Shown: one piece after another, positions 2,154 through 64,000 of the stretch
Position numbering within the stretch: the first letter of the stretch is position 1
How the letters are laid out: each line of letters starts with the position of its first letter
From: Eubacteriales bacterium
GTDB taxonomy: Bacteria > Bacillota > Clostridia > Oscillospirales > JAAYXM01
DNA: 64,000 nt
NCBI GenBank assembly: GCA_045546975.1
Contig: JAZQDV010000010.1
Coordinates: 257,039 to 321,038, forward strand
Direction: 5' to 3'
Position numbers and translations under genes: made by a program
Notes under the pieces: generated by a model
Database searches by the model: none
What the model was told of the DNA's origin: nothing
The model's input: only the letters and a program-made list of their open reading frames with translations

Positions 2154-3791
<1,638 letters not shown>

Positions 3792-10131: not shown

Positions 10132-10144
10132 AATTCATAAAATT

Positions 10145-10182
10145 ACGGCGCACAACATTTTTGTTGTGCGCCGTTTTTTTTT
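10145..10182. terminator. terminator after tsf, shared with the convergent small gene
   Basis: Stem acggcgcacaac/gttgtgcgccgt followed by T8. Confidence 0.8.
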
Positions 10183-10185
10183 CAA

Positions 10186-10398
10186 TTACTGTATTGAAAA
10201 ATCTTTTTCCGAAAAAGCATTTATATTGAGAGTGGGCTCTTCTGGTGGGATGCGCTTTGTGGCATCATATACAAAATGTCGGCATTTGTATCCGAGGGAA
10301 ACTATTCCGTGATGCGAACAAATAGCCTCATTGTCGTTGATTTTTTTTGAGTACTGACAGAGCTCGCAGCGTTTTTCAATTTTTTTAGAAAAGAGCAT
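10186..10398 (-). CDS. small Cys/His-rich hypothetical protein (possible zinc ribbon)
   Basis: 70 aa. CELC...CSHH...C pattern. GGAGG RBS 7 nt upstream of the ATG. Lies 36 nt downstream of ylbJ on the same strand. Confidence 0.6.
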   Translation of the reverse strand: MLFSKKIEKRCELCQYSKKINDNEAICSHHGIVSLGYKCRHFVYDATKRIPPEEPTLNINAFSEKDFSIQ

Positions 10399-10434
10399 AT
10401 CAAAGCCTCCTAAAAGTTCTGCTCTTATAATACA

Positions 10435-12447: not shown

Positions 12448-14574
12448 ATGGAAGATAAAAATCGCTTTGACGAAACAATTTCAGGAATGTCCTTGCAGGA
12501 CATCCTTGATGAAATCAATGCGGATTCTTACGACGTGGATGAAAGCATCAACTTAGATGAAATCCTCGCCGAGTTTTCTGATGCTCCAAAAACAAAGGAA
12601 GAGCAGCCTGCTTTGCCGATAACAGAAAAAGAAGAAATAAAGATATACGATAAGAAAGAGGTTACAAAGAACGAAACGCCTCAAAAAAAAGTGGAAGAAA
12701 AGCCGCAGGAGAAGGTAGAGGAAGAACCGAAACCGATTGAAGAAACTGCTCCGAAACCGATTGAAACAATTGTTCGTCCGTGGCAGGACGGTGTTTACGG
12801 AGATATGGATGTATCCGACACCATACGAAACTCACAGAAAAAGAAAAAAACATCAAAATTCTCCGAGACATTTGATACATTTACACGAAGCGATCTTTTT
12901 GAAAGCAAAAATAAAGAAGAGAAGCTTGAGACAAGAAGCGTTGAGGAAATCCTCATTGAAAACAAAAAGGTATCAAGATTTCTCGGTATCCGTGCGGCGT
13001 TTCTTTTTGTTATAAGCTTGATTTCCTGCTACCTTGCATTTGCAGAGCCGCTTAACTTATTTATGCCGCAGATAATCGCATATATCGTAAATCCGTTCAG
13101 GTATTTGTTCCTGACTGCGTTCTTTGAAATTCTCGCAATGCTCCTTTCAATAGACGTAATATCAAGGGGCCTTTATCAGATAATAAAGCTCCGACCGAAC
13201 AGGGACTCTGCAATTACGTTCGCATCCTTTGCTACGCTGCTGCATGTTATAACAATTATGGCGGCACCAAAATGGGGAGGATGGCTTCCGTATAGCTGTA
13301 TATCCGTTCTGTGCCTGTTCTTTGCAGTGTTCGGAAAATGGATAAGGGCAAGGGCGATTACGCGTGTCTGCAGGACTGTAAAGGCCGCGAAAGAGCCAAA
13401 TGTTCTTCATGTAGAGACAAACTACGGCGAAACAAACATAATAAAACAGACAACAACAGATACAAAAACATTTATTGCGCACATAAACGATAAAGATGCA
13501 ACAGAAAATATCTGGAGATATTTCTCACCGATTGTTATTATTACATCAGTTGTTGGAGCGGCGGTGTCAGCATTTGCGACAAAAACACCGCAGAACTTTT
13601 TCTGGGCACTTTCGGCAATATCCTGTGTTTCTGCACCGCTCTTTACGGTGCTGAGCTTTGTTTTTCCGTTCTCGGTAACAGCAAAGAGTCTTTCCTCGGT
13701 GGGTACGGCACTTTCGGGCTGGTATTCAGCGACGAATCTCTCGCGTCAGGGAAATGTTGTTGTGTGTGATTCTGACCTCTTCCCGAAAGGATACGTTTCA
13801 CTCAACGGCCTTAAAATACTTGGCAATTTCTCGCTCGAGCAGACTGTGTGCTATGCGGCAAGTGTGATATCAGAGACAGGGAGCGGACTTTGTGACGTGT
13901 TCTCTGATCTCTTAAAGAGCAGATATGCTGCCACCGTTAAGGTCAATAATCTTCGTTATCATGAGTCGGGCGGCGCGGAAGCTGAGATAGAAGGCAACTC
14001 TGTTCTTGTTGGTACAGCGGGCTTTATGATTCGCTCAGGTATCCGCCTTGTATCAGGCACAAATACCAAAAACGCGATATTTGTTTCGATAAACAAACAG
14101 CCTGCAGGTGTTTTCAACATAAACTATAAGGTGAACAGGGAGGTTGAAAGAGCCCTTCATCTGCTTGTGAAGAAAAAGATTTCGGTTATTCTTGCAGTAA
14201 GGGATTTTAATCTCACTCCGATGATGGTTGAAAAGCTTTTTGGATTGAAGGACGGAAGCCTTGAATATCCCGAGCTCGAACAGAGATTTGATATGTCAAA
14301 CGAGGAACAGTACATCACCTCAGACATAAGTGCAGTAATCACAAGAGCGGGACTTTATCCGTTTGCCGCTGCAGTACTTGCTGCAAAAAAGCTCAGAAAG
14401 GTAACTATAAGAAATATCTGTATGACAACGGCAAGCTCGTTTATAGGTATGTTCTTTATGTTCTATCTGACGTTTATGCAAAGACCTGAGCTTATAACAC
14501 CACATACGGTTTTGGTGTATATGCTTCTTTGGTTCATTCCTATGTATATGCTTTCGTTAAAAGTTAAAAAATAA
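12448..14574 (+). CDS. membrane protein resembling a degenerate P1B-type ATPase (catalytic motifs lost)
   Basis: 708 aa. The first ~175 aa are acidic/Lys-rich and low-complexity. The remaining TM/cytoplasmic layout aligns by eye to CopA-type ATPases, with DKTGT->DSDLF, TGDN->VRDFN, CPC->CVS, and no TGES or GDGxNDxP. Confidence 0.55.
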   Translation: MEDKNRFDETISGMSLQDILDEINADSYDVDESINLDEILAEFSDAPKTKEEQPALPITEKEEIKIYDKKEVTKNETPQKKVEEKPQEKVEEEPKPIEETAPKPIETIVRPWQDGVYGDMDVSDTIRNSQKKKKTSKFSETFDTFTRSDLFESKNKEEKLETRSVEEILIENKKVSRFLGIRAAFLFVISLISCYLAFAEPLNLFMPQIIAYIVNPFRYLFLTAFFEILAMLLSIDVISRGLYQIIKLRPNRDSAITFASFATLLHVITIMAAPKWGGWLPYSCISVLCLFFAVFGKWIRARAITRVCRTVKAAKEPNVLHVETNYGETNIIKQTTTDTKTFIAHINDKDATENIWRYFSPIVIITSVVGAAVSAFATKTPQNFFWALSAISCVSAPLFTVLSFVFPFSVTAKSLSSVGTALSGWYSATNLSRQGNVVVCDSDLFPKGYVSLNGLKILGNFSLEQTVCYAASVISETGSGLCDVFSDLLKSRYAATVKVNNLRYHESGGAEAEIEGNSVLVGTAGFMIRSGIRLVSGTNTKNAIFVSINKQPAGVFNINYKVNREVERALHLLVKKKISVILAVRDFNLTPMMVEKLFGLKDGSLEYPELEQRFDMSNEEQYITSDISAVITRAGLYPFAAAVLAAKKLRKVTIRNICMTTASSFIGMFFMFYLTFMQRPELITPHTVLVYMLLWFIPMYMLSLKVKK

Positions 14575-21476: not shown

Positions 21477-21962
21477 ATGAAGGTTGCAGTTTACCCGGGT
21501 AGCTTTGACCCGGTAACAAAAGGTCATCTCGACATCATCGAACGAGCAGCGTCAATTTTTGACAAGGTTGTCGTTGTTGCAATGGTAAATAAAAAGAAAA
21601 ACGCAACATTCTCCCTGGAGGAGAGATGCGATTTTCTCAAACGCTGCACAAAGTCTCTTGAAAATGTAGAGGTCAGGTATTCCGACGGTCTCCTTGCAGA
21701 TTGGGTGAAAGATATTGGAGACTGCGTACTTATAAAGGGGCTTCGTGCTGTGAGCGATTTTGAAACGGAATTCCAGATGGCGCTTATTAACCGAAAGCTC
21801 AACTGCAAGCTTGAAACCTTATTCTTGCCGACATCGGAAGGGCATTTATATCTTTCCTCGAGCGTAGTCCGTGAGATTTGCTCTCTTGGAGGAGATATTT
21901 CTGAATTCGTGAGTGAAGAGATACTTTCTGACGTTAGGAAAAGATTGTTGAAGGGAGAATAA
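21477..21962 (+). CDS. coaD: pantetheine-phosphate adenylyltransferase
   Basis: VYPGSFDPVTKGHLDII. Confidence 0.95.
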   Translation: MKVAVYPGSFDPVTKGHLDIIERAASIFDKVVVVAMVNKKKNATFSLEERCDFLKRCTKSLENVEVRYSDGLLADWVKDIGDCVLIKGLRAVSDFETEFQMALINRKLNCKLETLFLPTSEGHLYLSSSVVREICSLGGDISEFVSEEILSDVRKRLLKGE

Positions 21963-21964
21963 CT

Positions 21965-22450
21965 ATGGCAAGTGGAATCGAAGAACTCGTAAATATGCTG
22001 TATGATGCGGTTTCTGACGCATGGGCAATTCCTTTTGGAGCTGAAAAGTGTGTCATTGAGCGCGAAAAACTTCTTAACTTAATAGATGAAATCCGTGAAA
22101 ACCTTCCAAAAGATTTGGAGCAGGCAAGAACAATTGTTGAAAACAGAAACGAAATCCTTCTTCAGGCAAAGCGTGAAGCGGATGCGATAAAAGCAGCTGC
22201 AGAGGAGCGCGCACGTCACATGGTCGCAGAGGATGAGATTGTTATTTCAACAAAACAGAAGGCAAACGAGCTTGTTAATATGGCGGAGACCAAGGCAAAA
22301 GAACTTCGCCGTGCTGCAAACGACTATGCAGAGGATACATTAAGACGTCTTGAGGATGTTATTGAGCAGGCACTTAATGAAACGAGAGAATCAAGAAAGC
22401 AGTTCAAAACAGCCGTAGTAAAAGGTAGCAACCCGACAATTGAAGAATAA
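21965..22450 (+). CDS. coiled-coil protein (ATP synthase b / V-ATPase H-like), function unknown
   Basis: 161 aa rich in E/K/A/R heptads. Tightly coupled to coaD. No catalytic motif. Confidence 0.55.
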   Translation: MASGIEELVNMLYDAVSDAWAIPFGAEKCVIEREKLLNLIDEIRENLPKDLEQARTIVENRNEILLQAKREADAIKAAAEERARHMVAEDEIVISTKQKANELVNMAETKAKELRRAANDYAEDTLRRLEDVIEQALNETRESRKQFKTAVVKGSNPTIEE

Positions 22451-33913: not shown

Positions 33914-34077
33914 ATCTTTCACATCCTTTTCTGAAAAAGTGAAAAAGGTCTTGCAAAATAACAAATAATGGGATAAAATAAACAAAGTGTTTTCAGAAAT
34001 ATCTTTTTTATATTCTAACCGCAAAACAACGATTTTTCAAGTAAACTAAACAAATTATTTTACGGAGGCAATAAATT

Positions 34078-35271
34078 ATGAAAATTCTCGTTATTAACGC
34101 AGGAAGCTCCTCGCTCAAGTACCAGTTTATGGAGTCTGAGGGTGGAGAGGTTTTTGCAAAGGGTCTTTGCGAGCGTATAGGCATTGACGGACGTCTCACA
34201 CACAAGGTTCCAGGCAAAGATGATGTCAAGGTTGACATTGCAATGCCCACACATGCTGAGGCTATTCAGTCTGTTCTTGATATTCTCGTCGATCCAAAGG
34301 ACGGCGTTATAGCATCTACTGACGAAATTGCTGCAGTTGGACACAGAGTTCTCCACGGCGGTATGGAATTCACTGCAAGCTGCCTTATCGACGACACTTG
34401 CATCGCTGCAATTGAAAAGTGTATTCCGCTCGGCCCGCTCCATAACCCTGCAAACCTTATGGGTATCAGAGCTTGCCAGAAGGTTATGCCGAAAACTCCG
34501 CAGGTTGCAGTTTTCGATACTGCTTTCCATATGACAATGCCGCCAAAGGCATACATCTATCCGATTCCGTATGAGTACTATGAAAAGGACGATGTACGTC
34601 GCTACGGCTTCCACGGCACAAGCCACAGATATGTTTCTGCACGCGCGATTGATATGCTCGGAAACCCTGAGCACAGCCGCGTAATCTGCTGTCACCTTGG
34701 CAACGGCTCCTCACTTTCTGCAGTAGTTGACGGAAAGTGCCAGGATACAAGTATGGGTCTTGGCCCGCTCGCAGGCTTCCTCATGGGAACACGCGCAGGT
34801 GATATTGATGCTACAATCCTTGAGTACCTTATGGGTCGCTACGGCTACGACATCAAGGAGATGAACAACATCCTCAACAAAAAGTCAGGTGTTCTCGGTA
34901 TCTCGGGCGTAAGCTCTGACTTCCGCGACCTTGATGAGGCTGCTGCAAACGGAAACGAGCGCGCACGTCTTGCTCTTGATAAGTTCATCTACGAGGTAAA
35001 GAAGTTCATAGGTGCATACTCAACTGCTATGGGCGGTGTTGACGCTATCGTATTTACTGCAGGTATCGGTGAAAACTCAACAGATCTCCGCGAGGAAATC
35101 TGCTCCGGTCTTGAATATATGGGCGTTAAGATGGATGCTGAGAAGAACAAGGTTCGCGGCAAGGAAGCGGATGTTTCTGCTGCCGACTCAAAGGTAAAGA
35201 TTTTTGTAATCCCGACAAACGAAGAGCTTATGATAGCAAAGGATACAGAAGAAATCGTAAAAGCTCTCTAA
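34078..35271 (+). CDS. ackA: acetate kinase
   Basis: MKILVINAGSSSLKYQ and GFHGTSH. Confidence 0.97.
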   Translation: MKILVINAGSSSLKYQFMESEGGEVFAKGLCERIGIDGRLTHKVPGKDDVKVDIAMPTHAEAIQSVLDILVDPKDGVIASTDEIAAVGHRVLHGGMEFTASCLIDDTCIAAIEKCIPLGPLHNPANLMGIRACQKVMPKTPQVAVFDTAFHMTMPPKAYIYPIPYEYYEKDDVRRYGFHGTSHRYVSARAIDMLGNPEHSRVICCHLGNGSSLSAVVDGKCQDTSMGLGPLAGFLMGTRAGDIDATILEYLMGRYGYDIKEMNNILNKKSGVLGISGVSSDFRDLDEAAANGNERARLALDKFIYEVKKFIGAYSTAMGGVDAIVFTAGIGENSTDLREEICSGLEYMGVKMDAEKNKVRGKEADVSAADSKVKIFVIPTNEELMIAKDTEEIVKAL

Positions 35272-35539: not shown

Positions 35540-35752
35540 TTTATCAACTCCTTATTTTTATACTTTCAACGTACATAATAAGTATTCCGTGAAGTTATTC
35601 GATAAATTCATTTTTGTTTATGTAAAATTTTGAAAAAACATAGGAAAATATTAAAAAAATAAGAGTGTTTTTGTAAAGTTTACTATGGACTTTTTGGCAA
35701 ATTTATGCTTTAATATATAGTATGTAGTTTTGTATAATTGGAGTTGAAAGAA

Positions 35753-37141
35753 ATGAAGCTTACAAATGTAAAAGAACTGTATTCTTCGCCTGAGAGCTTT
35801 GGTGGAAAACAGGTTACTGTAGGTGGTTGGATTCGTACAGTACGTGATTCCAAAGTTTTCGGCTTTATGGAGCTTAATGATGGCTCATTTTTCAAGAGCG
35901 TTCAGGTCGTTATAGATGATAAGATCGCGAATTTTTCTGAGCTTGTTCACCTCAATGTCGGAAGCGCTGTGGTTGTAAAGGGTACACTTGTGCTTACTCC
36001 TGAGGCAAAGCAGCCCTTTGAAATCAAGGCCGACGAAGTTGTGGTTGAAGGAGAGTCTGCTCCTGATTATCCGCTTCAGAAGAAACGCCACTCTCTCGAG
36101 TTTTTGAGAACGATAACATATCTCCGTCCGAGGACAAACACATTCTCAGCTGTATTCAGAGTGAGAAGTGAGGCTGCCTATGCTATTCACAAGTTCTTCA
36201 ACGAACGCGGATTTGTGTACGCACACACACCGATAATCACAGGAAGTGACTGTGAAGGTGCGGGCGAGATGTTCAAGATAACAACTCTCGATATGGAAAA
36301 TCCGCCGAGGGATGATAACGGAAAGGTTGACTATTCAACTGACTTTTTCGGCAGGGAAGCAAGCCTTACCGTTTCAGGCCAGCTTGAGGCTGAGACGTTT
36401 GCTCTCGCTTTTGGAAAGACATATACATTTGGTCCTACCTTCCGTGCGGAAAATTCAAATACGGCGCGTCATGCGGCAGAGTTCTGGATGATAGAGCCTG
36501 AAATAGCTTTTGCTGATATAAACGACGATATGGAACTTGCAGAGGCTATGGTCAAGTACGTTATCAGACACGTTCTCGATAACTGCAAGGAAGAAATGGA
36601 GTTCTTTAATAACTTTGTTGATAAAGGACTTATCGAACGCCTTGAGCTTGTTGCAAACTCTGATTTCGGAGTTATGGAATATGCTGAGGGCATCAAAATT
36701 CTCGAACAGTACAAGGATAAGTTTGAATATCCCGTATTCTTCGGGTGCGACCTTCAGACAGAGCATGAGCGTTTCCTCACCGAAGAGATTATGAAGAAGC
36801 CGATGTTCCTTATAAACTACCCGAAGGAAATAAAGGCATTCTATATGCGCCAGAACGATGACGGAAAGACCGTTGCCGCTATGGACCTTTTCGTTCCGGG
36901 AATCGGCGAGCTTATTGGTGGAAGTCAGCGTGAGGAGAGATACGATGTTCTTCTTGCCAAGATGGAAGAGATGAAGCTTCCGCGTGAGGATTATGAGTGG
37001 TATTTGAATCTCCGTCGCTTTGGCGGTGTAAAGCATGCAGGTTACGGCCTCGGCTTTGAGCGTCTCATTATGTACCTCACGGGCATTTCAAACATCCGTG
37101 ACGTGCTTCCGTTCCCGAGATGCACAGGCAAATTATTGTAA
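35753..37141 (+). CDS. asnS: asparagine--tRNA ligase
   Basis: [10 protein letters not shown]...[11 protein letters not shown]-fold N-terminus and a class II core ([15 protein letters not shown]). ATG 35753. Confidence 0.93.
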
Positions 37142-37163
37142 TTTATTTTTAGGAGAATATATT

Positions 37164-38444
37164 ATGGAAAAGATTTCGTATAAGAGCCTTTCAAAAGATC
37201 AGATGATTGCGCTCCGTGATGAGCTTTCAAAAAAGTATGCTGAATATGTTGCACGCGGACTCAAGCTTGATATGTCAAGAGGAAAGCCTGCACCGAATCA
37301 GCTTGACCTTTCAGAGGGACTTTTGAGTGTTATTTCAAAGAGTGAGGACGTCTCTGATGTAACTCCCGACGTAAGAAACTACGGCGGACTCGACGGACTT
37401 CCTGAAATGAAGAAAATTTTTGCCGATATGCTCGGTGTTAAGACAAGTGAAGTTATCGTTGGCGGAAACGCAAGTCTTACAATGATGTTTGATATGGTTT
37501 CCCGTTCTGTAACTCACGGCGTTTTGGGAAATACTCCATGGTCTCAGCTTTCTGAGGTCAAGTTCCTTTGCCCAGTTCCCGGATATGACAGGCACTTCTC
37601 AATATGCGAGTGCTTTGGAATCAAGATGATTCCTATCGCAATGACAAATGAAGGTCCGGATATGGATGAGGTGAAGAAGTACGTCGAAAATGACGCTTCC
37701 GTAAAGGGTATCTGGTGCGTTCCGAAATACTCAAATCCCACGGGCATCACATTCTCTGACGATGTAGTAAAAAAGCTTGCATCCTTAAAGCCCGCGGCAG
37801 CAGATTTCAGAATTTTCTGGGATAATGCATACTGTGTACACGACCTCTACGATGAGAGCGATAAGCTTCTCAACATTCTCGACGAGTGCCGTAAGATGGG
37901 AAATGAGGATATGTGCTATATCTTTGCTTCTACTTCAAAGGTTTCATTCCCGGGAGCAGGTGTTGCAGTTATGGCAATGAGCGAGAACAATATAGCAGCA
38001 ACAAAAAAAGTACTCGCAATGCAGATGATCGGTCCTGATAAGATAAATCAGCTCCGTCACATCAAATTCTTCCGTGATCTCGATGGTATCCGTGCTCACA
38101 TGAAAAAGCACGCAGCTATCCTTGCGCCGAAGTTTGAGATGGTTGTAAAGACATTTGAAGAAGAGCTCAAGGGTCTCGATATAGCAGATTGGACGTCACC
38201 CAACGGCGGATACTTTATAAGCCTCGATGTTCTTCCGGGCTGCGCAAAACGCGTTCATAAGCTTATGGCAGAGGCAGGCGTTGTAATGACAGGCTGCGGA
38301 GCAACATTCCCGTACGGAAACGACCCGCAGGATACAAACCTTCGTATTGCTCCGTCTTATCCTTCGGTTGACGAGCTTAAAACAGCTACTGAGCTTTTAT
38401 GTCTTTGTGTAAAGCTTGCAGCACTTGAAAAGTTGGTAGGATAG
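37164..38444 (+). CDS. class I/II-fold PLP-dependent aminotransferase (aspartate aminotransferase-like)
   Basis: 426 aa. Probable PLP-lysine context STSKVSFPGAG. AGGAGA RBS before ATG 37164. Confidence 0.75.
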   Translation: MEKISYKSLSKDQMIALRDELSKKYAEYVARGLKLDMSRGKPAPNQLDLSEGLLSVISKSEDVSDVTPDVRNYGGLDGLPEMKKIFADMLGVKTSEVIVGGNASLTMMFDMVSRSVTHGVLGNTPWSQLSEVKFLCPVPGYDRHFSICECFGIKMIPIAMTNEGPDMDEVKKYVENDASVKGIWCVPKYSNPTGITFSDDVVKKLASLKPAAADFRIFWDNAYCVHDLYDESDKLLNILDECRKMGNEDMCYIFASTSKVSFPGAGVAVMAMSENNIAATKKVLAMQMIGPDKINQLRHIKFFRDLDGIRAHMKKHAAILAPKFEMVVKTFEEELKGLDIADWTSPNGGYFISLDVLPGCAKRVHKLMAEAGVVMTGCGATFPYGNDPQDTNLRIAPSYPSVDELKTATELLCLCVKLAALEKLVG

Positions 38445-38454
38445 AGGTAAAAAG

Positions 38455-39885
38455 ATGAGAAATACATACGAATCACCGCTCAATTCAAGATACGCAAGCG
38501 CGGAAATGACGGAACTTTTCTCTCCTGATGTCAAGTTCAAGACATGGAGAAAGCTCTGGATAGCACTTGCGCGTGCTGAGATGAAACTCGGTCTTCCAGT
38601 TACACAGGCACAGATTGATGAGCTTGAAAAATTCAAGGATGACATCAACTATGAAGTTGCAGAAAAGCGCGAAAAGGAAGTTCGCCATGACGTTATGTCA
38701 CATGTCTATGCGTACGGTGTTCAGTGCCCGAATGCAAAAGGCATAATCCATCTCGGCGCTACCAGTTGCTATGTTGGTGACAATACAGACATAATCATTA
38801 TGCGTGATGCCTTAAAGCTTATCCGCAAGCGCCTTGTAAGTGTCATATCAGCACTTTCAAAGTTTGCAGATGAGTATAAGGATATGCCGACACTCGGCTT
38901 CACTCATTTCCAGCCGGCTCAGCTTACCACAGTGGGAAAGCGTGCAACTCTCTGGATAAATGAGCTTTTATATGACCTTTCTGAAATTGAGTTCAGAATC
39001 GATGCGATGCGCCTTCTCGGTTCAAAGGGAACAACGGGTACTCAGGCGAGCTTTATGGAGCTCTTTGACGGAGACGAAGAAAAAATAAAGAAGATGGAAC
39101 AGTACATTGCCGAAGAACTTGGCTTTGACGGTGTTGTTCCGGTTTCCGGTCAGACATATTCAAGAAAAATCGACTCAATGGTTCTCTCAACACTCTCGGG
39201 TATTGCGCAGAGTGCTTGCAAGTTTGCAACAGACCTTCGTCTGCTTTCAAACTTAAAGGAAATGGAAGAACCGTTTGAGAAGAACCAGATAGGCTCTTCT
39301 GCAATGCCGTACAAGAGAAATCCGATGCGTTCCGAGCGTATATGTGCGCTTTCAAAGTTCGTTATAAGCACGTCTATAAATCCGGCACTTACTGCGGCAA
39401 CACAGTGGTTCGAAAGAACTCTTGACGACTCTGCAAACAAGCGTCTTGCAGTTGCTGAAGCATTCCTTGCAACAGATGCAATTCTTTCAATTTACTTAAA
39501 TGTTGCTTCTGGCCTTGTTGTTTATCCGAAGGTTATCAACCGCCATCTTATGGAAGAACTTCCGTTTATGGCGAGTGAGAACATAATGATGGATGCAGTC
39601 AAGCGTGGCGGTGACCGACAGGAGCTTCACGAACTCATCAGAACTCATTCCGTAGCAGCAGGCAAGAAAGTCAAGGAAGAGGGAATGTCAAACGACCTCA
39701 TTGACAGAATCGCAAACGACCCGGCATTCGGTATGACAAAGGAAGAGATTGAAAAGAATCTCGATCCTAAGAACTTTACCGGAAGAAGTGCTTCTCAGGT
39801 AACGGAATTTATCCGTGATTATGTGAAACCCTCTGTTGAAAAATACGCGGATGAAATCGCAACAGAGGCAGAATTAAAAGTATAA
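38455..39885 (+). CDS. purB: adenylosuccinate lyase
   Basis: Fumarate-lyase signature GSSAMPYKRNP. 476 aa. Confidence 0.95.
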   Translation: MRNTYESPLNSRYASAEMTELFSPDVKFKTWRKLWIALARAEMKLGLPVTQAQIDELEKFKDDINYEVAEKREKEVRHDVMSHVYAYGVQCPNAKGIIHLGATSCYVGDNTDIIIMRDALKLIRKRLVSVISALSKFADEYKDMPTLGFTHFQPAQLTTVGKRATLWINELLYDLSEIEFRIDAMRLLGSKGTTGTQASFMELFDGDEEKIKKMEQYIAEELGFDGVVPVSGQTYSRKIDSMVLSTLSGIAQSACKFATDLRLLSNLKEMEEPFEKNQIGSSAMPYKRNPMRSERICALSKFVISTSINPALTAATQWFERTLDDSANKRLAVAEAFLATDAILSIYLNVASGLVVYPKVINRHLMEELPFMASENIMMDAVKRGGDRQELHELIRTHSVAAGKKVKEEGMSNDLIDRIANDPAFGMTKEEIEKNLDPKNFTGRSASQVTEFIRDYVKPSVEKYADEIATEAELKV

Positions 39886-39920: not shown

Positions 39921-41219
39921 ATGAAAAAAGGCATACTCGGTTTTGTTGCTGTTCTGGTGGTTGTTGCATTAGTTGCAGTAATCGCAATCAGCGGCCTTAA
40001 CCTTGGTGTAGCGGAGATTCCGAGTGCAGTTGACGGTATTCGACTCGGTCTTGATCTCAAAGGCGGTGCGGCTATAACATTTGAGGCACGCACAGAGGAC
40101 GGGTCAACACCGTCGATGGCAGATATGGAAATTGCACAGACAGTTCTCAGAAAGAGACTTGATGCTGCAAACTACACGGAAGCTACCGTCCAGATAATGG
40201 GCGATAAGCGTCTTGCAGTAGAGATTCCATCGGTTACTGACCCTGATGAAGCTGTTGAGCTTCTCGGAAAAACTGCTGTTTTAGAGTTTCGTGATGCTGA
40301 TTCAAATGTAATTTTGACAGGTGCAGACATTGAGAGTGCAGCATCAGTTTACGGACAGGTATCAGAAACAGGACCGAGCGTACACCACGTCACACTTAAG
40401 TTCAAGAGTGAGGCACGTTCAAAGTTTGTTGCAGCAACAAAGGTTGCCGCTGCAAACGCAAGCTCAGGGAAGAACTACATCGACATTTTCCTTGATGATG
40501 TAAATCAGAGCCATGCGTTTGTTGATGCTTCCTATGCATCTACAGGCATTGATTCAGAAAGCGTTGTTATCACAATGGGCGACGAGAACAGCATGATGGC
40601 TACCGGCGGCGATGCTGCAAAGACTCTTGCAAATGTAATCAATTCCGGACGTCTTCCGTTTGAGCTTGAGGAAATCGAAACACGTGCAGTAGGGCCGACA
40701 TTGGGCGAGAAGGCACTTGAAACAAGTCTCTTTGCAGGACTTATCGGTCTTATTCTTGTTATCATCTTTATGATAGCTATTTACAGGCTTCCTGGTATTG
40801 TTGCGGGTATTTCTCTTGCGTTCTACACAACTCTTTTCATAGTAGTTATGGCTCTTCTCAAGGTCAACCTTTCACTTCCGGGTATTGCAGGTGTTATCCT
40901 CTCGATCGGTATGGCGGTTGATGCTAACGTAATTATTTATGAGCGTATTAAGGAAGAACTCAGGAACGGTAAGACAATAAAGGCTTCCATTGATGCGGGA
41001 TTTAAGCGTGCATTCACGGCAATTCTTGACTCCAACATCACAACCCTCATCGCAGCAGTAGTTCTTTATATGTACGGTATGGGCACAATAGTAGGCTTTG
41101 CAATCACTTTGGGACTCGGCGTTGTTATCTCAATGTTCACGGTTTTGGTAGTATCACGTTTCTTGCTTTACCGCCTCGTTGATATGAACGTCAAGTCGCT
41201 CAAGGCTTACGGTGTATAA
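39921..41219 (+). CDS. secD: protein translocase subunit SecD
   Basis: 432 aa. N-terminal TM, a periplasmic-type domain, and 5 C-terminal TMs. Confidence 0.9.
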   Translation: MKKGILGFVAVLVVVALVAVIAISGLNLGVAEIPSAVDGIRLGLDLKGGAAITFEARTEDGSTPSMADMEIAQTVLRKRLDAANYTEATVQIMGDKRLAVEIPSVTDPDEAVELLGKTAVLEFRDADSNVILTGADIESAASVYGQVSETGPSVHHVTLKFKSEARSKFVAATKVAAANASSGKNYIDIFLDDVNQSHAFVDASYASTGIDSESVVITMGDENSMMATGGDAAKTLANVINSGRLPFELEEIETRAVGPTLGEKALETSLFAGLIGLILVIIFMIAIYRLPGIVAGISLAFYTTLFIVVMALLKVNLSLPGIAGVILSIGMAVDANVIIYERIKEELRNGKTIKASIDAGFKRAFTAILDSNITTLIAAVVLYMYGMGTIVGFAITLGLGVVISMFTVLVVSRFLLYRLVDMNVKSLKAYGV

Positions 41220-41232
41220 GGAGGGGAAAGAA

Positions 41233-42171
41233 ATGTTTGCTAAATTGGAAAATAAACTTAACATAGTTAGTAAGTTCAACATTTTTGGAACAATCGCAGT
41301 TATAGTTGCCCTTTTAGGTTTGGTTTCCGTTGTTCTCCTTCCGTTTAATGTAAATCTCTTCAATTTTGATATTGACTTTGCAGGCGGAACAACACTGTCT
41401 TATAATATGCATAAGGATCTTGACAAGGCAGAGCTTGATAACATAGCAGCGATTACTGAAAAGACGGTAGGCATCGCACCGTCATCAGTTCAGAAGCTTG
41501 ACGACGGAACTCAGGTTCTCATCAAGATTAATACTCTTGAAGCACAGCAGCGCGATGCTATCTTTACAGCACTCAAGGAAGCGTACGGACTCAATGACGG
41601 AACAACAAAGGATGAAAATGGAAATGTGATCCCGACAGATATCCTCTCTGTTGATAATGTTGACCCTGTTATGGGTAAGGATTTGAGAAATGCTGCTATC
41701 ATTTCAGCACTTCTTGCAATTCTTCTTATGCTTGTTTACATAGCAATCCGTTTCAGTGTAAAGTCAGGTGTTGCAGCAGTTGTAGCTCTTGCACATGACG
41801 TTTTGGTAGTTATCGGTGCTTATGTCGTTTTCCGCATCCCTGTAAATATGACGTTTATCGCAGTTGTTCTTACAATCCTCGGTTATTCTATCAACGCAAC
41901 AATCGTCATATTTGACAGAATTCGTGAAAACAGAAAGATACTTAAGAAAACAAGCTTTGAGGATGTTGCAAACAAGAGTATCTGGCAGACAGTAACAAGA
42001 AGCATAAACACAACAATCACAACGCTTCTTCCGGTTGTATTCATTGCAATCTTCGGTGTAACATCAATCAGAAACTTTGCAATTCCGCTTATTGTCGGTC
42101 TCGTTGCAGGTTTGTATTCTTCAGTATTTATCTCAGGTCCGGTCTGGGCAAAGCTTGAAAAGAATAAATAA
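41233..42171 (+). CDS. secF: protein translocase subunit SecF
   Basis: Follows secD. GGTTLSY motif and 6 TMs. AAGGAGGGG RBS before ATG 41233. Confidence 0.9.
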   Translation: MFAKLENKLNIVSKFNIFGTIAVIVALLGLVSVVLLPFNVNLFNFDIDFAGGTTLSYNMHKDLDKAELDNIAAITEKTVGIAPSSVQKLDDGTQVLIKINTLEAQQRDAIFTALKEAYGLNDGTTKDENGNVIPTDILSVDNVDPVMGKDLRNAAIISALLAILLMLVYIAIRFSVKSGVAAVVALAHDVLVVIGAYVVFRIPVNMTFIAVVLTILGYSINATIVIFDRIRENRKILKKTSFEDVANKSIWQTVTRSINTTITTLLPVVFIAIFGVTSIRNFAIPLIVGLVAGLYSSVFISGPVWAKLEKNK

Positions 42172-42179
42172 AGCATTTT

Positions 42180-42207
42180 CAGAGGCTTGCATTTTTGCAA
42201 GCCTCTG
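42180..42207 (+). terminator. hairpin after secF (weak terminator)
   Basis: cagaggcttgc/gcaagcctctg stem with loop attttt. No U-tract follows. Confidence 0.4.
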
Positions 42208-42235
42208 GTTAATAAATAGCGGAGGTGTTTTGTAT

Positions 42236-43036
42236 TTGAAGGTGGGAATTTCGAGTGCCGTGTTTTATCCGATGGAATCCGAAAAATCGTTTGACAAGCT
42301 GATTTCGGCAGGATTTTCAACGGCGGAATTTTTCTATAATTGTGAATATGAAATTTCGGATGAATTTATAGAATACCTCTCAAAAAAGGTGAATGACGGG
42401 GGAATGGAGATAATTTCGGTTCACCCGTTTACTGCGTTTGCAGAAGGTGTGTTCCTGTTTTCAGATTATACTAGAAGAACAGAGGAACAAATGAACAAGT
42501 ACGAGAATACGTTCCGACAAATGCAGAAGCTTGGCGCAAAGTACTTTTCGTTTCATGGCGACCGCGCGTTCAAGGGACTTTCCGATGATTTCTGCAAGCT
42601 TACCGAGAGGGATGCAGAAATGCTTCGCACACTTTCGTCTCGGGCGAAAAAGTATGGAGTTACGGTGTGCCTTGAAAATGTTTCGTGGTGCAAATCGGCG
42701 AATATCAGCTATATCAGGGAGGTTTACGATGCTGTGCCTGAAATTGGCTTCACACTTGATTTGAAGCAGGCAAGACGTGCGGGTGTATCTGTTGATGAGT
42801 ATATCTCCGCAATGAGTGACAGAATCAAAAATATTCATGTAAGCGATTTTGACGATGCCTCCGACTGCTTGCCTCCCGGCGAGGGTAAGTTTGATTTTTC
42901 AAAGTTCTTCAAAAGGATTAAAAATACAGGGTATTCTGGTGATGTACTTATAGAGGTCTATTCATCTAATTTTTCAAAAACAGACCAACTTGTTAAAGCA
43001 AGGAACTTCCTTGAAAAGAAGATTACAGATTTGTGA
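42236..43036 (+). CDS. sugar phosphate isomerase/epimerase family protein (xylose-isomerase-like TIM barrel)
   Basis: About 266 aa. FSFHGD...CLENV pattern. TTG 42236 sits 10 nt after GGAGG. The track start at 42077 overlaps secF. Confidence 0.6.
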   Translation: MKVGISSAVFYPMESEKSFDKLISAGFSTAEFFYNCEYEISDEFIEYLSKKVNDGGMEIISVHPFTAFAEGVFLFSDYTRRTEEQMNKYENTFRQMQKLGAKYFSFHGDRAFKGLSDDFCKLTERDAEMLRTLSSRAKKYGVTVCLENVSWCKSANISYIREVYDAVPEIGFTLDLKQARRAGVSVDEYISAMSDRIKNIHVSDFDDASDCLPPGEGKFDFSKFFKRIKNTGYSGDVLIEVYSSNFSKTDQLVKARNFLEKKITDL

Positions 43037-43118
43037 CATTTTCTGCTATTTACTTGAAAATTTATGTAAACTTTGGTATTGTTATTATAGAAATAAATTG
43101 TCCTTTGGAGGTATTCGT

Positions 43119-43571
43119 ATGAAGTGTCCTTATTGTGGCTTTTTGGAAAGTAAAGTTTTGGATTCGCGCCCTGCAGAAGGCGGCGGGTCAATTCGACGTC
43201 GCAGAGAGTGTCTTTCTTGCCAGAAACGCTTTACAACGTATGAGACAATAGAGAGTATGCCTCTTTATGTTATCAAAAACGACGGTTCGCGTCAGCTTTT
43301 TGATAAGGCGAAGCTTCTTTCCGGTATGCTCCGTGCCTGTGTCAAGAGACCTGTGCCGATACATAAGCTTGAGGAGGTCGCTGACGAAATTGAGCAGACG
43401 CTCCAGAATACAATGGAGAAAGAAGTTTCAAGCAGCAAAATAGGTGAGATGACAATGAAACGCCTTAAGGAAATTGACCAGGTTGCTTATGTCCGCTTCG
43501 TTTCGGTTTACCGCTCGTTTGAAGATGTTGAGTCCTTCTTTGCAGAGCTCAATGGTCTTAAAGGAAAATAA
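43119..43571 (+). CDS. nrdR: transcriptional repressor NrdR
   Basis: MKCPYCG...SKVLDSRP...RRRRECLSC zinc ribbon plus an ATP-cone. GGAGG RBS. Confidence 0.95.
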   Translation: MKCPYCGFLESKVLDSRPAEGGGSIRRRRECLSCQKRFTTYETIESMPLYVIKNDGSRQLFDKAKLLSGMLRACVKRPVPIHKLEEVADEIEQTLQNTMEKEVSSSKIGEMTMKRLKEIDQVAYVRFVSVYRSFEDVESFFAELNGLKGK

Positions 43572-60439: not shown

Positions 60440-60476
60440 GAACTGATAGTAATACTTGATTTGAGGAGGAATGTTC

Positions 60477-61949
60477 GTGGAAAACATATATCGTGATATA
60501 TCACAGAGAACTGACGGGGATATTTACATAGGCGTAGTAGGCCCTGTCCGAAGCGGAAAATCAACATTGATTAAACGCTTTATGGAAACACTTGTGCTTC
60601 CGAATATTGAGAACATTTACACAAAAGAACGCGCACGGGACGAATTGCCACAGAGTGGATCTGGGAAAACTATTATGACCGCAGAACCCAAATTTGTTCC
60701 CGAGGAAGCGGTAAATATTTCGCTTGACGATGCCGCAGGCTTTAACGTAAGAATGATAGACTGTGTAGGTTATATGGTGGATGGCGCTATCGGTGATACC
60801 GAGGAGGGGACTCCCAGAATGGTGACAACTCCGTGGTGTGAGGGCGAAATACCGATGACTGAGGCTGCGGAAATAGGGACGCGAAAGGTCATCACCGAGC
60901 ACTCAACGATAGGCCTTGTCGTTACAACTGACGGAAGCATCACGGATATTCCGAGAGAGAGCTATGTTGCGGCTGAGGAGAGGGTTATAGAGGAGTTGCA
61001 GAGTATAGGAAAGCCATTTATAGTTCTTGTAAACTCTCAATATCCTGAGGGCGAAAAGGCAAAGAATATCGCAAAAGAGATTTCGGAAAAGTATAATGTA
61101 ACTTGTCTTCCTGTAAACTGTATGGCACTTGATGAGGAAGGTATACGTCATATTATAAAGAAAATTCTTTACGAGTTCCCGTTGACAAGAATAGAAATTT
61201 GTCTTCCTGCATGGTTTGAATCCTTGCCCAGCACACATAAAATTAAAAAAGAGATTTACGAGGGGATTTTGCAGGGGACAGAGAATACAGAGAGAATCAG
61301 AGACATAAACGACTGCGTTGATGTTATGAATAAATGTCCGTACCTTTCAGAGCTCTCTCTTTCTGAGATTGAACTCGGAAGTGGAAGGGCAGTTGCAACG
61401 GCACAGCTTCCGAGAAAGCTCTTTTACGATATTTTAAGTGAGGAGACGGGGTTTGAACTCGAAAGTGATAACGACCTTGTTCCGCTTCTTTCACGCCTTT
61501 CAAAGGTCAATACGGAATACTCACGTGTTTCGTATGCTTTGAAGCAGGTTGAGGAAACGGGGTACGGAATCGTGATGCCGTCAATTGATGAGCTAACCTT
61601 AGCTGAGCCTGAAATCGTAAAGCAGGGTGGACAGTACGGAGTACGTCTGCATGCAAGCGCACCGTCTATTCACATGATGCGCACAGATATAACAACTGAG
61701 GTCGCACCGATAGTAGGCAGTGAAAAACAGTCAGAAGAGCTTGTGGTGTGCATGCTCCGTGAGTTTGAAGACTCGCCCGAAAAAATATGGGAAACAAACA
61801 TTTTTGGAAAGTCGCTGTACTCTCTTGTAAACGAAGGACTTCATAATAAGCTCAACAAAATGCCGCAGGATGCACAGATGAAACTTCGTGAAACGGTAGA
61901 GAGAATAACAAACGAAACCTGCTCGGGTCTTATTTGTATAATATTGTAA
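60477..61949 (+). CDS. spoIVA: stage IV sporulation protein A (spore coat basement-layer ATPase)
   Basis: NIYRDISQRTDGDIYIGVVGPVRSGKSTLIKRFME, including the Walker A. GTG 60477 sits 6 nt after GGAGGA. ATG 60471 is too close to the RBS. Confidence 0.95.
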   Translation: MENIYRDISQRTDGDIYIGVVGPVRSGKSTLIKRFMETLVLPNIENIYTKERARDELPQSGSGKTIMTAEPKFVPEEAVNISLDDAAGFNVRMIDCVGYMVDGAIGDTEEGTPRMVTTPWCEGEIPMTEAAEIGTRKVITEHSTIGLVVTTDGSITDIPRESYVAAEERVIEELQSIGKPFIVLVNSQYPEGEKAKNIAKEISEKYNVTCLPVNCMALDEEGIRHIIKKILYEFPLTRIEICLPAWFESLPSTHKIKKEIYEGILQGTENTERIRDINDCVDVMNKCPYLSELSLSEIELGSGRAVATAQLPRKLFYDILSEETGFELESDNDLVPLLSRLSKVNTEYSRVSYALKQVEETGYGIVMPSIDELTLAEPEIVKQGGQYGVRLHASAPSIHMMRTDITTEVAPIVGSEKQSEELVVCMLREFEDSPEKIWETNIFGKSLYSLVNEGLHNKLNKMPQDAQMKLRETVERITNETCSGLICIIL

Positions 61950-61987
61950 AATGATAAGTGTTAGTTTGTGTTACGCAATGCTTCGTG

Positions 61988-62016
61988 CTGACAAGTTTTG
62001 TTTCAGATGATATAAT
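61988..62016 (+). promoter_or_regulatory. candidate sigma-A-type promoter upstream of the DegT-family gene
   Basis: CTGACA (61988-93), 17-nt spacer, TATAAT (62011-16). Overlaps the left arm of the 18-bp inverted repeat. Confidence 0.4.
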
Positions 62017-62058
62017 AAACTCACCTCGTAAACTGATCAATTTACGAGGTGAGTTTAT
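62015..62058 (+). terminator. 18-bp perfect inverted repeat after spoIVA (terminator and/or operator)
   Basis: ataaactcacctcgtaaa (62015-32), 8-nt loop, tttacgaggtgagtttat (62041-58). GC-rich core with A/T-rich flanks. Confidence 0.5.
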
Positions 62059-62073
62059 AAATAATACTAAAAC

Positions 62074-63400
62074 TTGAAGAACGAGATGGAATTGAAAATG
62101 GGAACAGATTTCAGATATAATACAGGGGCAACAAAGGTGCCATGGGCAGCTGTGGGCGAGAACTACAATGTTCACGATTTGATGGAAATAATTCGTTTTC
62201 TTATGCAAGGCGAAGGAAAAGAATACGATGATGCACTTGAGGCTGTATGGCAGCAGGTAAAGAAGCTTGAGCCTCTTGCGACACCGCCTGGAAAACTTTC
62301 TTTGGGAAGCAAAGTTGAAGAAGCTAAGGCTGCTTGTAATGAGTATCTCGGAACAACTACTTCAACCTTTGTGACAAATGCAACCGCAGGTTTTGAAATT
62401 GCATATAAATATGCAAATCTCAAACCGGGGGATGAGGTTATTGTTCCTGCCATCACTTTCGTTGCAACAATGGCATATCCTCTTGCAATAGGTGCTAAAC
62501 TGGTTTTTGCCGATGTTGATCCGAAAACCATCAATATGGACCCTGCAGATGTTGCAAGAAAGATTACAGACAAAACAAAAATGATAGTACCTGTACATAT
62601 TGGCGGATATCCTGTTGACATGGATCCGATTATGGAACTTGCAAAAAAAACACGATATCCTTGTACTTGAAGATGCCGCGCACGCATTCGGCGCAATGTA
62701 TAAGGGTAGAAAGATTGGTACAATTGGTGACTTTGCTGCATTTTCGATGCACGAGGTCAAGAATATCACCTCTTTTGGTGAAGGTGGTATTGCTACAACA
62801 AATGTACCGGGATTTGGTCCTGAAATGAAAAGAGCGCGTTTTCTCGGTCTTGATTTTTCATGTCCCATCAAGGATTGGCTTTACAATATTACACCGATCC
62901 AGGGCAAATACGAACCCTTTGTAGCAGGAAACAGTTCCACAACAGAAATTCAGGGACTTGGTCTTACACTGCAGGTTGCAAGGAATGAAGAGATTATAGA
63001 AACAAGAAGGAAAGCTGCTGCATATCTTACAGAAAGATTTTCTGTGTGCGATGCCATTATTCCGCAGGATATCGGCAATGATGATATCAAGCCATCTTTC
63101 CACCTTTATCTTCTTCAGATTGATCCCGCAAAGGCAGGCGGAAATGTTCAGGTTCTCAAAGAAAAGCTTGAAAAAAGAAGTGTCACACAGATTGCGCACT
63201 TTGGTCCTCTTTACAGATTCAAGGTTGTTCAGGATATGGGATACGATTCGGATGAGATTGCAAAAACATGTCCCAACTGTGAAGATGAATTTTACAACAG
63301 GTTTACGCACTTGCCCTTGTACGGTTTGAGTGATGAACAGCTTGAGTATATGGCCGATGCTGTACTGGAATCAATAGCAGAAATGCAGGCAGGTAAATAA
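62074..63400 (+). pseudogene. DegT/DnrJ/EryC1/StrS-family sugar aminotransferase interrupted by a +1 frameshift in an A8 tract
   Basis: Two overlapping ORFs, 62074-62670 and 62600-63400. Deleting one A from 62643-62650 gives the continuous sequence ...DPIMELAKKHDILVLEDAAHAFGA...SMHEVKNITSFGEGG. The start is uncertain (TTG 62074, ATG 62086 or ATG 62098). Confidence 0.8.
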
Positions 63401-63425
63401 GTTTAAGGCTTATATAAGAACAGAA

Positions 63426-63457
63426 AAAACACGGTATCCGAAAGGATACCGTGTTTT
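63426..63457. terminator. bidirectional terminator between convergent genes
   Basis: Stem aaaacacggtatcc/ggataccgtgtttt with a GAAA loop. A-run upstream and T-rich sequence downstream. Confidence 0.8.
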
Positions 63458-63468
63458 GATTTTAAGGA

Positions 63469-64000
63469 TTAAAGGTTTTCTTCGCAGAATTTAAGATCTT
63501 CGACTGTGTTGACGCCATATATCTCGCAAGTGTCACCGATGGTATAAGACTCAACTTTTTTGCCGTCTGCAATAAAGAGCTTCGGAACATCTGTAAGGTA
63601 ATATTCACCCTGTGCGTTGTTGTTGCGAAGCTTTGAAAGGTTTTCGAAAAGTGCCTTTGAGTTAAATACGTAAACACCGACGTTGAGCTCGTTGATTTTG
63701 AGTTGCTCGGGAGTGCAGTCCTTCTGCTCGACGATGTCAACGATTTTGCCGTTTTCACGGACGATTCTTCCGTAAGCAAGGGGGGAGTCACTTATAGAAG
63801 TGAGGAACGTACAATCCGCACCGCTCTCTTCGTGGGTTTTTACCATTGCTGCATAAGTTTCCTTCTTGAGCATAGGCATATCCCCGTAAAGGACAAGAAC
63901 ACTTCCGTCATAATCCTTGAAGTATTCCTTTGCAGAAGCAACTGCATGGCCTGTGCCAAGCTGTTCCTCCTGAACTGCAAACTTATAATCTCCCTTTGTT
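63469..64000 (-). CDS. sugar-1-phosphate nucleotidyltransferase, GlmU N-terminal-domain-like (5' end beyond the window)
   Basis: The frame stays open upstream of the track Met through 64000 and reads ...QEEQLGTGHAVASAKEYFKDYDGSVLVLYGDMPMLKK... It stops at 63469 with no left-handed beta-helix acetyltransferase domain. Confidence 0.8.
   Translation of the reverse strand, partial: TKGDYKFAVQEEQLGTGHAVASAKEYFKDYDGSVLVLYGDMPMLKKETYAAMVKTHEESGADCTFLTSISDSPLAYGRIVRENGKIVDIVEQKDCTPEQLKINELNVGVYVFNSKALFENLSKLRNNNAQGEYYLTDVPKLFIADGKKVESYTIGDTCEIYGVNTVEDLKFCEENL

Follow-up and report, generated by a model that had tools for sequence, protein, structure and literature searches.

The window, which is the whole 64-kb stretch of DNA that was analyzed, holds 55 putative genes and is 95% coding. 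One of its gene blocks is a housekeeping and sporulation backbone, ClpX-Lon-EngB-LysA-SpoIVA, in which spoIVA (stage IV sporulation protein A; plus strand, 60471 to 61949; Pfam SpoIVA_ATPase, SpoIVA_middle, and SpoIVA_C) comes last. On the same strand, downstream of spoIVA, lies a gene for a DegT-family protein that is written in two parts, a 5' part in frame 0 (62086 to 62670) and a 3' part in the +1 frame (62651 to 63400). Past a short spacer, a convergent gene on the minus strand (63469 to 64000, its 3' part only, running off the end of the window) encodes a protein that matches Pfam NTP_transferase.

The spacers on both sides of the DegT gene carry recognizable elements. Between spoIVA and the DegT gene is a promoter-like site of the sigma-70 type on the plus strand (61988 to 62016; CTGACA, 17 nt, and TATAAT with a TG extension), a candidate promoter by virtue of its 11 of 12 consensus matches. 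A TTGACA-like −35 element is also present in the 61-bp tail past spoIVA at a related locus, L163, whose SpoIVA is 96% identical. The −10 box of the promoter-like site is overlapped by a perfect 18-bp inverted repeat with an 8-nt loop (62015 to 62058; RNA fold of −27.7 kcal/mol, z −8.1), which has no U-tail, no second copy in the window, and no copy at the other loci fetched. Its role may be that of a terminator for spoIVA, albeit an atypical one, or of an operator that overlaps the promoter. On the far side, between the convergent DegT and nucleotidyltransferase genes, a G+C-rich 14-bp stem-loop (63426 to 63457) probably acts as an intrinsic terminator in both directions, in which case the DegT gene would be monocistronic. 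An Rfam search over 61900 to 63500 returned nothing meaningful.

The convergent gene was considered as housekeeping GlmU, and this assignment was rejected. It matched the NCBIfam GlmU models over positions ∼63 to 233 only, i.e., the N-terminal domain. Its product is 86% identical to residues 64 to 239 of a 239-amino-acid (aa) protein at locus L164 and shares its end point. By this comparison it is a standalone sugar-1-phosphate nucleotidyltransferase of ∼240 aa that resembles the GlmU N-terminal domain.

The break in the DegT gene coincides with a homopolymer. Positions 62641 to 62652 read gcaaaaaaaaca, with a run of eight A's at 62643 to 62650, and the in-frame state at this one-base insertion site is A7 (GCA AAA AAA CAC, i.e., A-K-K-H). 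Frame 0 starts at ATG 62086 (alternatives, TTG 62074 and ATG 62098), reads ...VPVHIGGYPVDMDPIMELAKK up to the break at residue 188, and continues for six out-of-frame codons (TRYPCT), so that it ends ...PIMELAKKTRYPCT* with its stop at 62668 to 62670. The +1 frame opens with HDILVLEDAAHAFG..., encodes residues 189 to 437, and runs HDILVLEDAAHAFGAMYKG...SMHEVKNITSFGEGG... to a stop at 63398 to 63400; HDILVLEDAAHAFGAMYK is an example of a peptide from this frame. Removal of one A yields a 437-aa product from ATG 62086, the best 120 orthologues being 432 to 438 aa long, and the junction peptide of this product, ELAKKHDILVLED, is the same in many intact orthologues.

Profile and alignment searches agree with the sequence. 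The upstream open reading frame (ORF) covers positions 18 to 138 of Pfam DegT_DnrJ_EryC1 and the downstream ORF covers positions 133 to 359, while the one-A-deleted product gives a single match over 18 to 359 of 360 positions (E 2.5e-73, 247.8 bits). When the repaired protein was queried against the window by tblastn, residues 1 to 188 aligned at 62086 to 62649 (100%) and residues 182 to 437 aligned at 62630 to 63397 in the next frame. The positions of these two high-scoring segment pairs (HSPs) therefore place an indel inside the A tract and argue against a chance juxtaposition. The initial annotation had described a DegT-family gene that is interrupted, precisely at the A8 run, by a +1 frameshift and that with seven A's would encode one continuous enzyme of ∼440 aa; both points are borne out, and the motifs it named, VPVHIGGYP and SMHEVKNITSFGEGG, are present.

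The repaired protein is a DegT-family aminotransferase by its residues as well as by its score, which exceeds the PF01041 gathering cutoff of 19.8 bits. In the alignment with PDB 7b0d, a glutamine--scyllo-inositol transaminase, LEDAAHA falls on IEDACQA and SMHEVKN falls on SFYPTKN, Lys on Lys. The Asp that contacts the PLP pyridine and the Schiff-base Lys are thus both retained, as in an aminotransferase and not in a His-type dehydratase. The full-length Pfam match, the Asp, and the Schiff-base Lys are shared with the DegT/DnrJ/EryC1/StrS sugar aminotransferases of solved structure (7b0d; ArnB, 1mdo; NtdA, 4k2b), from which the window protein differs in that the closest structure matches at just E 2e-43 and its gene does not lie in a polysaccharide or antibiotic cluster. 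It also passes no equivalog model: among the named DegT equivalogs in NCBIfam (PseC, WecE, ArnB, LegC, DesI, and RfbH), none scored above its curated cutoff, the best being PseC at 198.7 versus 423.5 bits. The enzyme subfamily is therefore uncharacterized.

Because the frameshift precedes the codons for both the Asp and the Schiff-base Lys, the 194-aa frame 0 product lacks these residues and cannot be active. One way in which the gene as written could still work is as a two-piece enzyme, with both ORFs translated separately and assembling into an active aminotransferase. Both halves are perfectly preserved, as such an arrangement would require. However, the break interrupts the large PLP-binding domain just ahead of the conserved Asp, and the first ATG of the downstream frame is at codon 33 (ATG 62696, Met206), past the LEDAAHA Asp, with no visible ribosome-binding site. 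No split was found among 162 orthologue loci or the best 120 protein homologues (described below). We regard a functional two-piece enzyme as barely conceivable.

Tract length and reading frame among orthologues

Searches found >6,800 homologues, and the best 120 of these (85 to 91% identical, 432 to 438 aa) were compared at the protein level. The loci collected were 80 from species-representative genomes (GTDB), 80 from metagenomes, and 2 more reached via protein identity, for a total of 162. The gene occupies a single uninterrupted frame at all 162 loci, and the best 120 proteins are likewise intact. Extra HSPs at these loci were mostly adjoining paralogues, with some gene fragments and splits at contig ends (L085, L120, and L162). 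At L085, a short N-terminal DegT fragment in two frames (20 to 144) lies upstream of an intact copy on a low-coverage contig. At L162, a C-terminal part is found at the contig start (1 to 417) and an N-terminal part at its end (2466 to 3347), with identities of 79% and 92%. The partial copies at L085 and L162 are probably assembly artifacts or tandem copies.

Across the junction, the best 120 homologues read ...PIMELAKKHDILVLEDAAHAFG..., in many cases the same as the one-A-deleted product, and none of them has a third Lys. A7 is therefore the in-frame state of the tract; a native A10 (KKK) was considered and ruled out on the same grounds. Over the homologous ten codons, the longest A run is A1 to A6 at 161 of the 162 loci (A3 being the commonest) and A7 at one, and A8 occurs at none. 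AAG or AGA codons interrupt the run in most relatives. The sole locus with a run of at least seven at the site is that of a 69%-identical orthologue (L131, 1106 to 1135), where GCA AAA AAA CAT provides an in-frame A7. We infer that A7 is the ancestral allele of the window tract.

AAA-AAA makes up 42 of the 153 Lys-Lys codon pairs in the window, and the run is A6 or shorter in 161 of the 162 orthologues. The tract (GCA AAA AAA CAC) is therefore unremarkable, a result of codon choice in this lineage and not a conserved switch or recoding site.

The comparison of orthologues, which the initial annotation had put forward as a check, was thus carried out on relatives of other species, in which the gene was intact at 162 of 162 loci. 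For relatives of the same species, exact protein matches to the window SpoIVA or to the N-terminal DegT fragment were sought, and none is on record; an exact DNA pattern across the tract (A7 plus 0 to 2 bases, with flanks) had no matches in metagenome contigs. Protein-guided scans of GTDB genomes and metagenomes returned 160 loci, the closest at 92% amino acid identity with synonymous sites saturated, and none from a conspecific. A search via the adjacent SpoIVA returned one 96% relative, whose 1.7-kb contig stops 61 bp past spoIVA, and then just 79% relatives with no DegT gene in that place.

The orthologue data bear directly on slipped-strand phase variation, in which an A7/A8 contingency switch would turn the aminotransferase off and on in a population. 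The initial annotation listed this option, and it is a legitimate candidate. DegT-family enzymes belong to glycan pathways that are phase variable in some pathogens. A8 is at the lower limit for a hypermutable homopolymer, and runs of A7 to A8 act as switches in Firmicutes, with precedents in flgG (PMC9941203) and in swrA and inlA (PMC2831843); insertions in poly-A runs of Bacillus subtilis swrA and Leptospira fliM are also cited in PMC9941203. In Paenibacillus glucanolyticus flgG, a reversible A8/A7 frameshift gives 7A variants at 0.9% in culture and at 8% under H2O2, the run lies near the 5' end and is common to several Paenibacillus species, and both switching directions and a fitness trade-off were shown (PMC9941203). 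Like the flgG case, the window tract is a coding A7/A8 run in a Firmicute in which a one-base change causes a frameshift and a premature stop, reversible in principle. Unlike the flgG run, it lies in the middle of a gene of cytoplasmic metabolic type, is absent from 161 of 162 orthologues, and is known from one sequence.

Listeria monocytogenes inlA offers a second comparison. Its 5' poly-A tract is in frame at A7, off at A6, and stabilized as A2GA4; it starts at nucleotide 6, truncates the protein to 8 aa, and has arisen independently multiple times among isolates (PMC2831843). The two cases are alike in having an in-frame A7, an out-of-frame neighboring allele, and relatives with an interrupted run (AAG or AGA here, A2GA4 in inlA), but the off state in the window is an insertion (A8) found in a single sequence. 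Moreover, such tracts are enriched near the 5' ends of genes (PMC2831843), whereas the window tract is at residue 188 of 437, 43% into the gene. The comparable Listeria run changes from A6 to A7 at just ∼1,000 times the point mutation rate (PMC2831843), the DegT gene is outside any surface-glycan locus, and its extreme purifying selection (see below) fits a constitutively needed enzyme. The phase variation option is weakened by the lack of conservation of the tract (A7 at 1 of 162 loci, A8 at 0) and by its midgene position. An evolved switch is accordingly improbable, and we consider it equally doubtful that the tract is a reversible A7/A8 bet-hedging switch, with a genuine A8 as its OFF state and possibly some leakage through RNA polymerase slippage.

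The same comparisons bear on a rescue by recoding. Were A8 genuine, some full-length enzyme might still be made through RNA polymerase slippage (A7 or A10 transcripts) or +1 ribosomal slippage, and the allele would be a hypomorph. The shift needed is +1, and a tRNA-Lys on AAA-AAA-A can re-pair perfectly one base downstream. The A9 run of Clostridium thermocellum IS1447 slips at ∼16% either way, and in a reporter a run of seven A's was enough (PMC6211511); for human apoB, ∼10% rescue at A8 runs is cited in PMC1088944. The window tract resembles these slippage sites in its A-run length class and, as with IS1447, in requiring a +1 change (PMC1088944 and PMC6211511). However, known sites are conserved among homologues, are usually at least 9 nt long, and in the case of IS1447 are preceded by a stem-loop, none of which applies here, and selection against slippage is generally evident only from ∼9 nt (Baranov et al. 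2005, PMC1088944). Neither the two-frame arrangement nor the run is shared by any homologue (162 loci and the best 120 proteins), and rescue therefore cannot be a programmed feature. Folding of 62590 to 62700 revealed no stimulatory RNA structure around the tract (z −0.16), no Shine-Dalgarno-like element is visible upstream of the shift site, and the next frame 0 codon after the tract is an ordinary ACA, with the stop six codons further. A classic −1 frameshift on A_AAA_AAA was also considered and rejected, the required shift being +1 (or −2). Recoding rescue is very improbable on these data.

Constraint on the gene and the origin of the eighth A

Apart from the frameshift, the gene bears no mark of decay. 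The repaired protein violates only 1 of the 211 columns that are invariant among 120 orthologues; in a leave-one-out comparison, one or more violations of this kind also occur in 27 of the 120 intact orthologues. By the Nei-Gojobori method with the 30 closest coding sequences, pN and pS are 0.072 and 0.729 between the window and its orthologues and 0.073 and 0.713 among the orthologues, and the equality of pN holds separately 5' and 3' of the break. dN/dS is ∼0.04, with synonymous sites saturated and amino acids nearly unchanged, and the high identity across genera therefore reflects constraint and not recent transfer. The promoter-like and terminator-like signals of the gene are intact. The frameshift is thus a single lesion, with neither the extra lesions nor the relaxed constraint of a decaying pseudogene. 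In the absence of any other decay, either the lesion arose very recently or it is not real. Sequencing error, phase variation, and recent pseudogenization, the three causes named in the initial annotation, were the right candidates to list.

The other homopolymers in the window provide a measure of sequence quality. With a long homopolymer defined as at least 7 A/T or at least 6 G/C, the window contains 36, of which 25 are in ORFs, and 24 of these 25 are in frame. The window has three A8 tracts in total, and the other two, at 12683 and 32506, are in frame, the latter inside a full-length Mur ligase gene. None of the other putative genes in the 64 kb (55 in total) was found to be split. Suspected split genes at 41212 to 43571, 21477 to 22450, 35738 to 39885, and 34060 to 35271 were examined, and each turned out to consist of individual genes with no relation to one another or of shadow ORFs. 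The ORFs that seemed to overlap or to lie in tandem involved SecF, a TIM-barrel enzyme, and NrdR; a cytidylyltransferase next to an unknown ORF; and a class II aminoacyl-tRNA synthetase, aspartate aminotransferase, and adenylosuccinate lyase. Because 24 other coding homopolymers are in frame and no second split gene turned up, unreliability at such tracts is not a general property of the assembly, and the frameshift stands alone in sequence that is otherwise clean.

Two further homopolymer-rich regions were observed in the window. A 708-aa ORF with no Pfam match at an E value of ≤0.01 (12448 to 14574) contains the in-frame A8 at 12683 to 12690 and an A7 at 12844 to 12850 near its 5' end. The longest homopolymers of the window, T9 (10174 to 10182), T8 (10341 to 10348), and T7 (10380 to 10386), lie in a 300-bp gap between convergent genes (10132 to 10434) and are presumably terminator tails.

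Our preferred explanation, held tentatively and at somewhat under even probability, is that the organism's DNA does contain the extra A, through a very recent, nonprogrammed loss-of-function mutation at a mutational hot spot. Strand slippage would have added one A (A7 to A8) in an incidental, lineage-specific poly-A run and thereby broken the frame of a strongly constrained, otherwise intact gene for a DegT-family PLP-dependent sugar aminotransferase. The A8 gene as written would be a null allele, the downstream part having no evident restart signal; the extra base would lie in the DNA and not merely in the consensus, and no full-length protein would be made. By analogy with Listeria inlA, reversion may occur at a low rate, on the order of 1e-7 to 1e-6 per generation, which would not make the tract an evolved switch.

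A homopolymer-length miscall is the main competitor of this fresh null allele. If the eighth A is a sequencing or assembly artifact, A7 is the true state and the gene is intact and expressed in the organism, a reading that we also consider a serious possibility and place below the null allele. Complete lack of decay, very strong purifying selection across hundreds of species, and the retention of expression signals are what an artifact would predict, and a +1 change in one of the window's longest homopolymers is a classic error mode of long-read and flow-based platforms. The clean state of the 24 other coding homopolymers, two of them A8, and the lack of any other broken gene in 64 kb count against it and in favor of a real base, but a single residual error is possible.

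Other observations divide similarly. In favor of the fresh null allele, frameshifts in A runs of the same size are real mutations in Firmicutes (flgG, PMC9941203; inlA and swrA, PMC2831843). The gene is also solitary in a variable slot and has no Gfo/Idh/MocA partner (see below), so it may be dispensable here. Against the null allele, the gene is among the most constrained in the clade, which lowers the prior for a null allele as the majority sequence, and the collections searched contain no same-species sequence by which the null allele and an error could be told apart. Every sign of freshness is predicted equally by a base-calling or consensus error; the two make identical predictions for everything computable from sequence. 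On balance, the clean homopolymers and the solitary, possibly dispensable gene tip the evidence slightly toward a real allele, while the extreme constraint tips it the other way.

Genomic context and the enzyme subfamily

The nearest sequenced relative of the window is L164 (Oscillospiraceae metagenome-assembled genome GCA_017559985.1; SpoIVA 79% identical). The ClpX-Lon-EngB-LysA-SpoIVA backbone is syntenic there, as it is in the series L164 to L166. The slot between spoIVA and the nucleotidyltransferase gene is variable, being filled by the DegT gene in the window (61950 to 63468) and by genes for an EamA transporter and a LysR regulator in L164 (7474 to 9480), past which L164 continues with the nucleotidyltransferase, a flavin reductase, and ValRS. 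The DegT gene has a GC3 of 0.342, ∼2 standard deviations below that of the window genes (0.428 ± 0.038). Neither a second DegT copy nor a Gfo/Idh/MocA gene is present in the window.

These surroundings do not support the suggestion in the initial annotation that the gene lies at the edge of a glycan locus. The upstream genes (Lon, EngB, LysA, and SpoIVA) are housekeeping and sporulation genes, and the nucleotidyltransferase is a standalone enzyme that occupies the same place in L164 without a DegT gene. Nor is the label of glycan-modifying enzyme supported, since the orthologues sit in sugar or amino-sugar metabolism operons. Directly downstream of the DegT gene, a Gfo/Idh/MocA oxidoreductase is encoded at 74 of the 162 loci. 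Other common neighbors are a divergent PocR-AraC regulator (46 loci) and a 3-keto-disaccharide-hydrolase-like protein (34 loci), followed by a ROK regulator (19), a PIG-L deacetylase (18), and a creatininase-family protein (16), with transporters as well; spoIVA, lysA, or the nucleotidyltransferase gene was near the DegT gene at none of the 162 loci. The pairing of a Gfo/Idh/MocA protein with a DegT enzyme is of the same kind as NtdC/NtdA or WbpB/WbpE. In the window, the gene stands by itself in a variable slot, and its product has the look of a cytoplasmic enzyme acting on sugars or amino sugars.

For annotation, the locus is best recorded as a frameshifted DegT-family aminotransferase gene, with the intact A7 form taken as the sequence of biological meaning; it represents neither two small proteins nor evidence of a glycan locus. 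It is an ordinary homopolymer frameshift, whether a fresh mutation or a sequencing slip, and an instance of a well-known kind with no specialized genetic switch. A real extra A would mean the very recent loss of a highly constrained enzyme in one lineage, a matter of modest interest, and an erroneous one would serve as a warning about assembly quality. Under either, the current understanding of phase variation or recoding is unchanged. With a true switch, homopolymer phase variation would reach beyond surface and motility genes into the core sugar metabolism of commensal Clostridia, in an undersampled lineage of gut Oscillospiraceae.

A more useful by-product of the analysis is the enzyme subfamily itself. 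Its conservation is extreme, no curated equivalog covers it, and in gut Oscillospirales its usual partner is a Gfo/Idh/MocA oxidoreductase. With its partners, the subfamily represents an uncharacterized and widespread sugar or amino-sugar pathway of these bacteria. Among the 120 orthologues, 211 of ∼440 columns are invariant, and between the same kinds of genomes the DegT protein is more conserved than SpoIVA (92% versus 79%).
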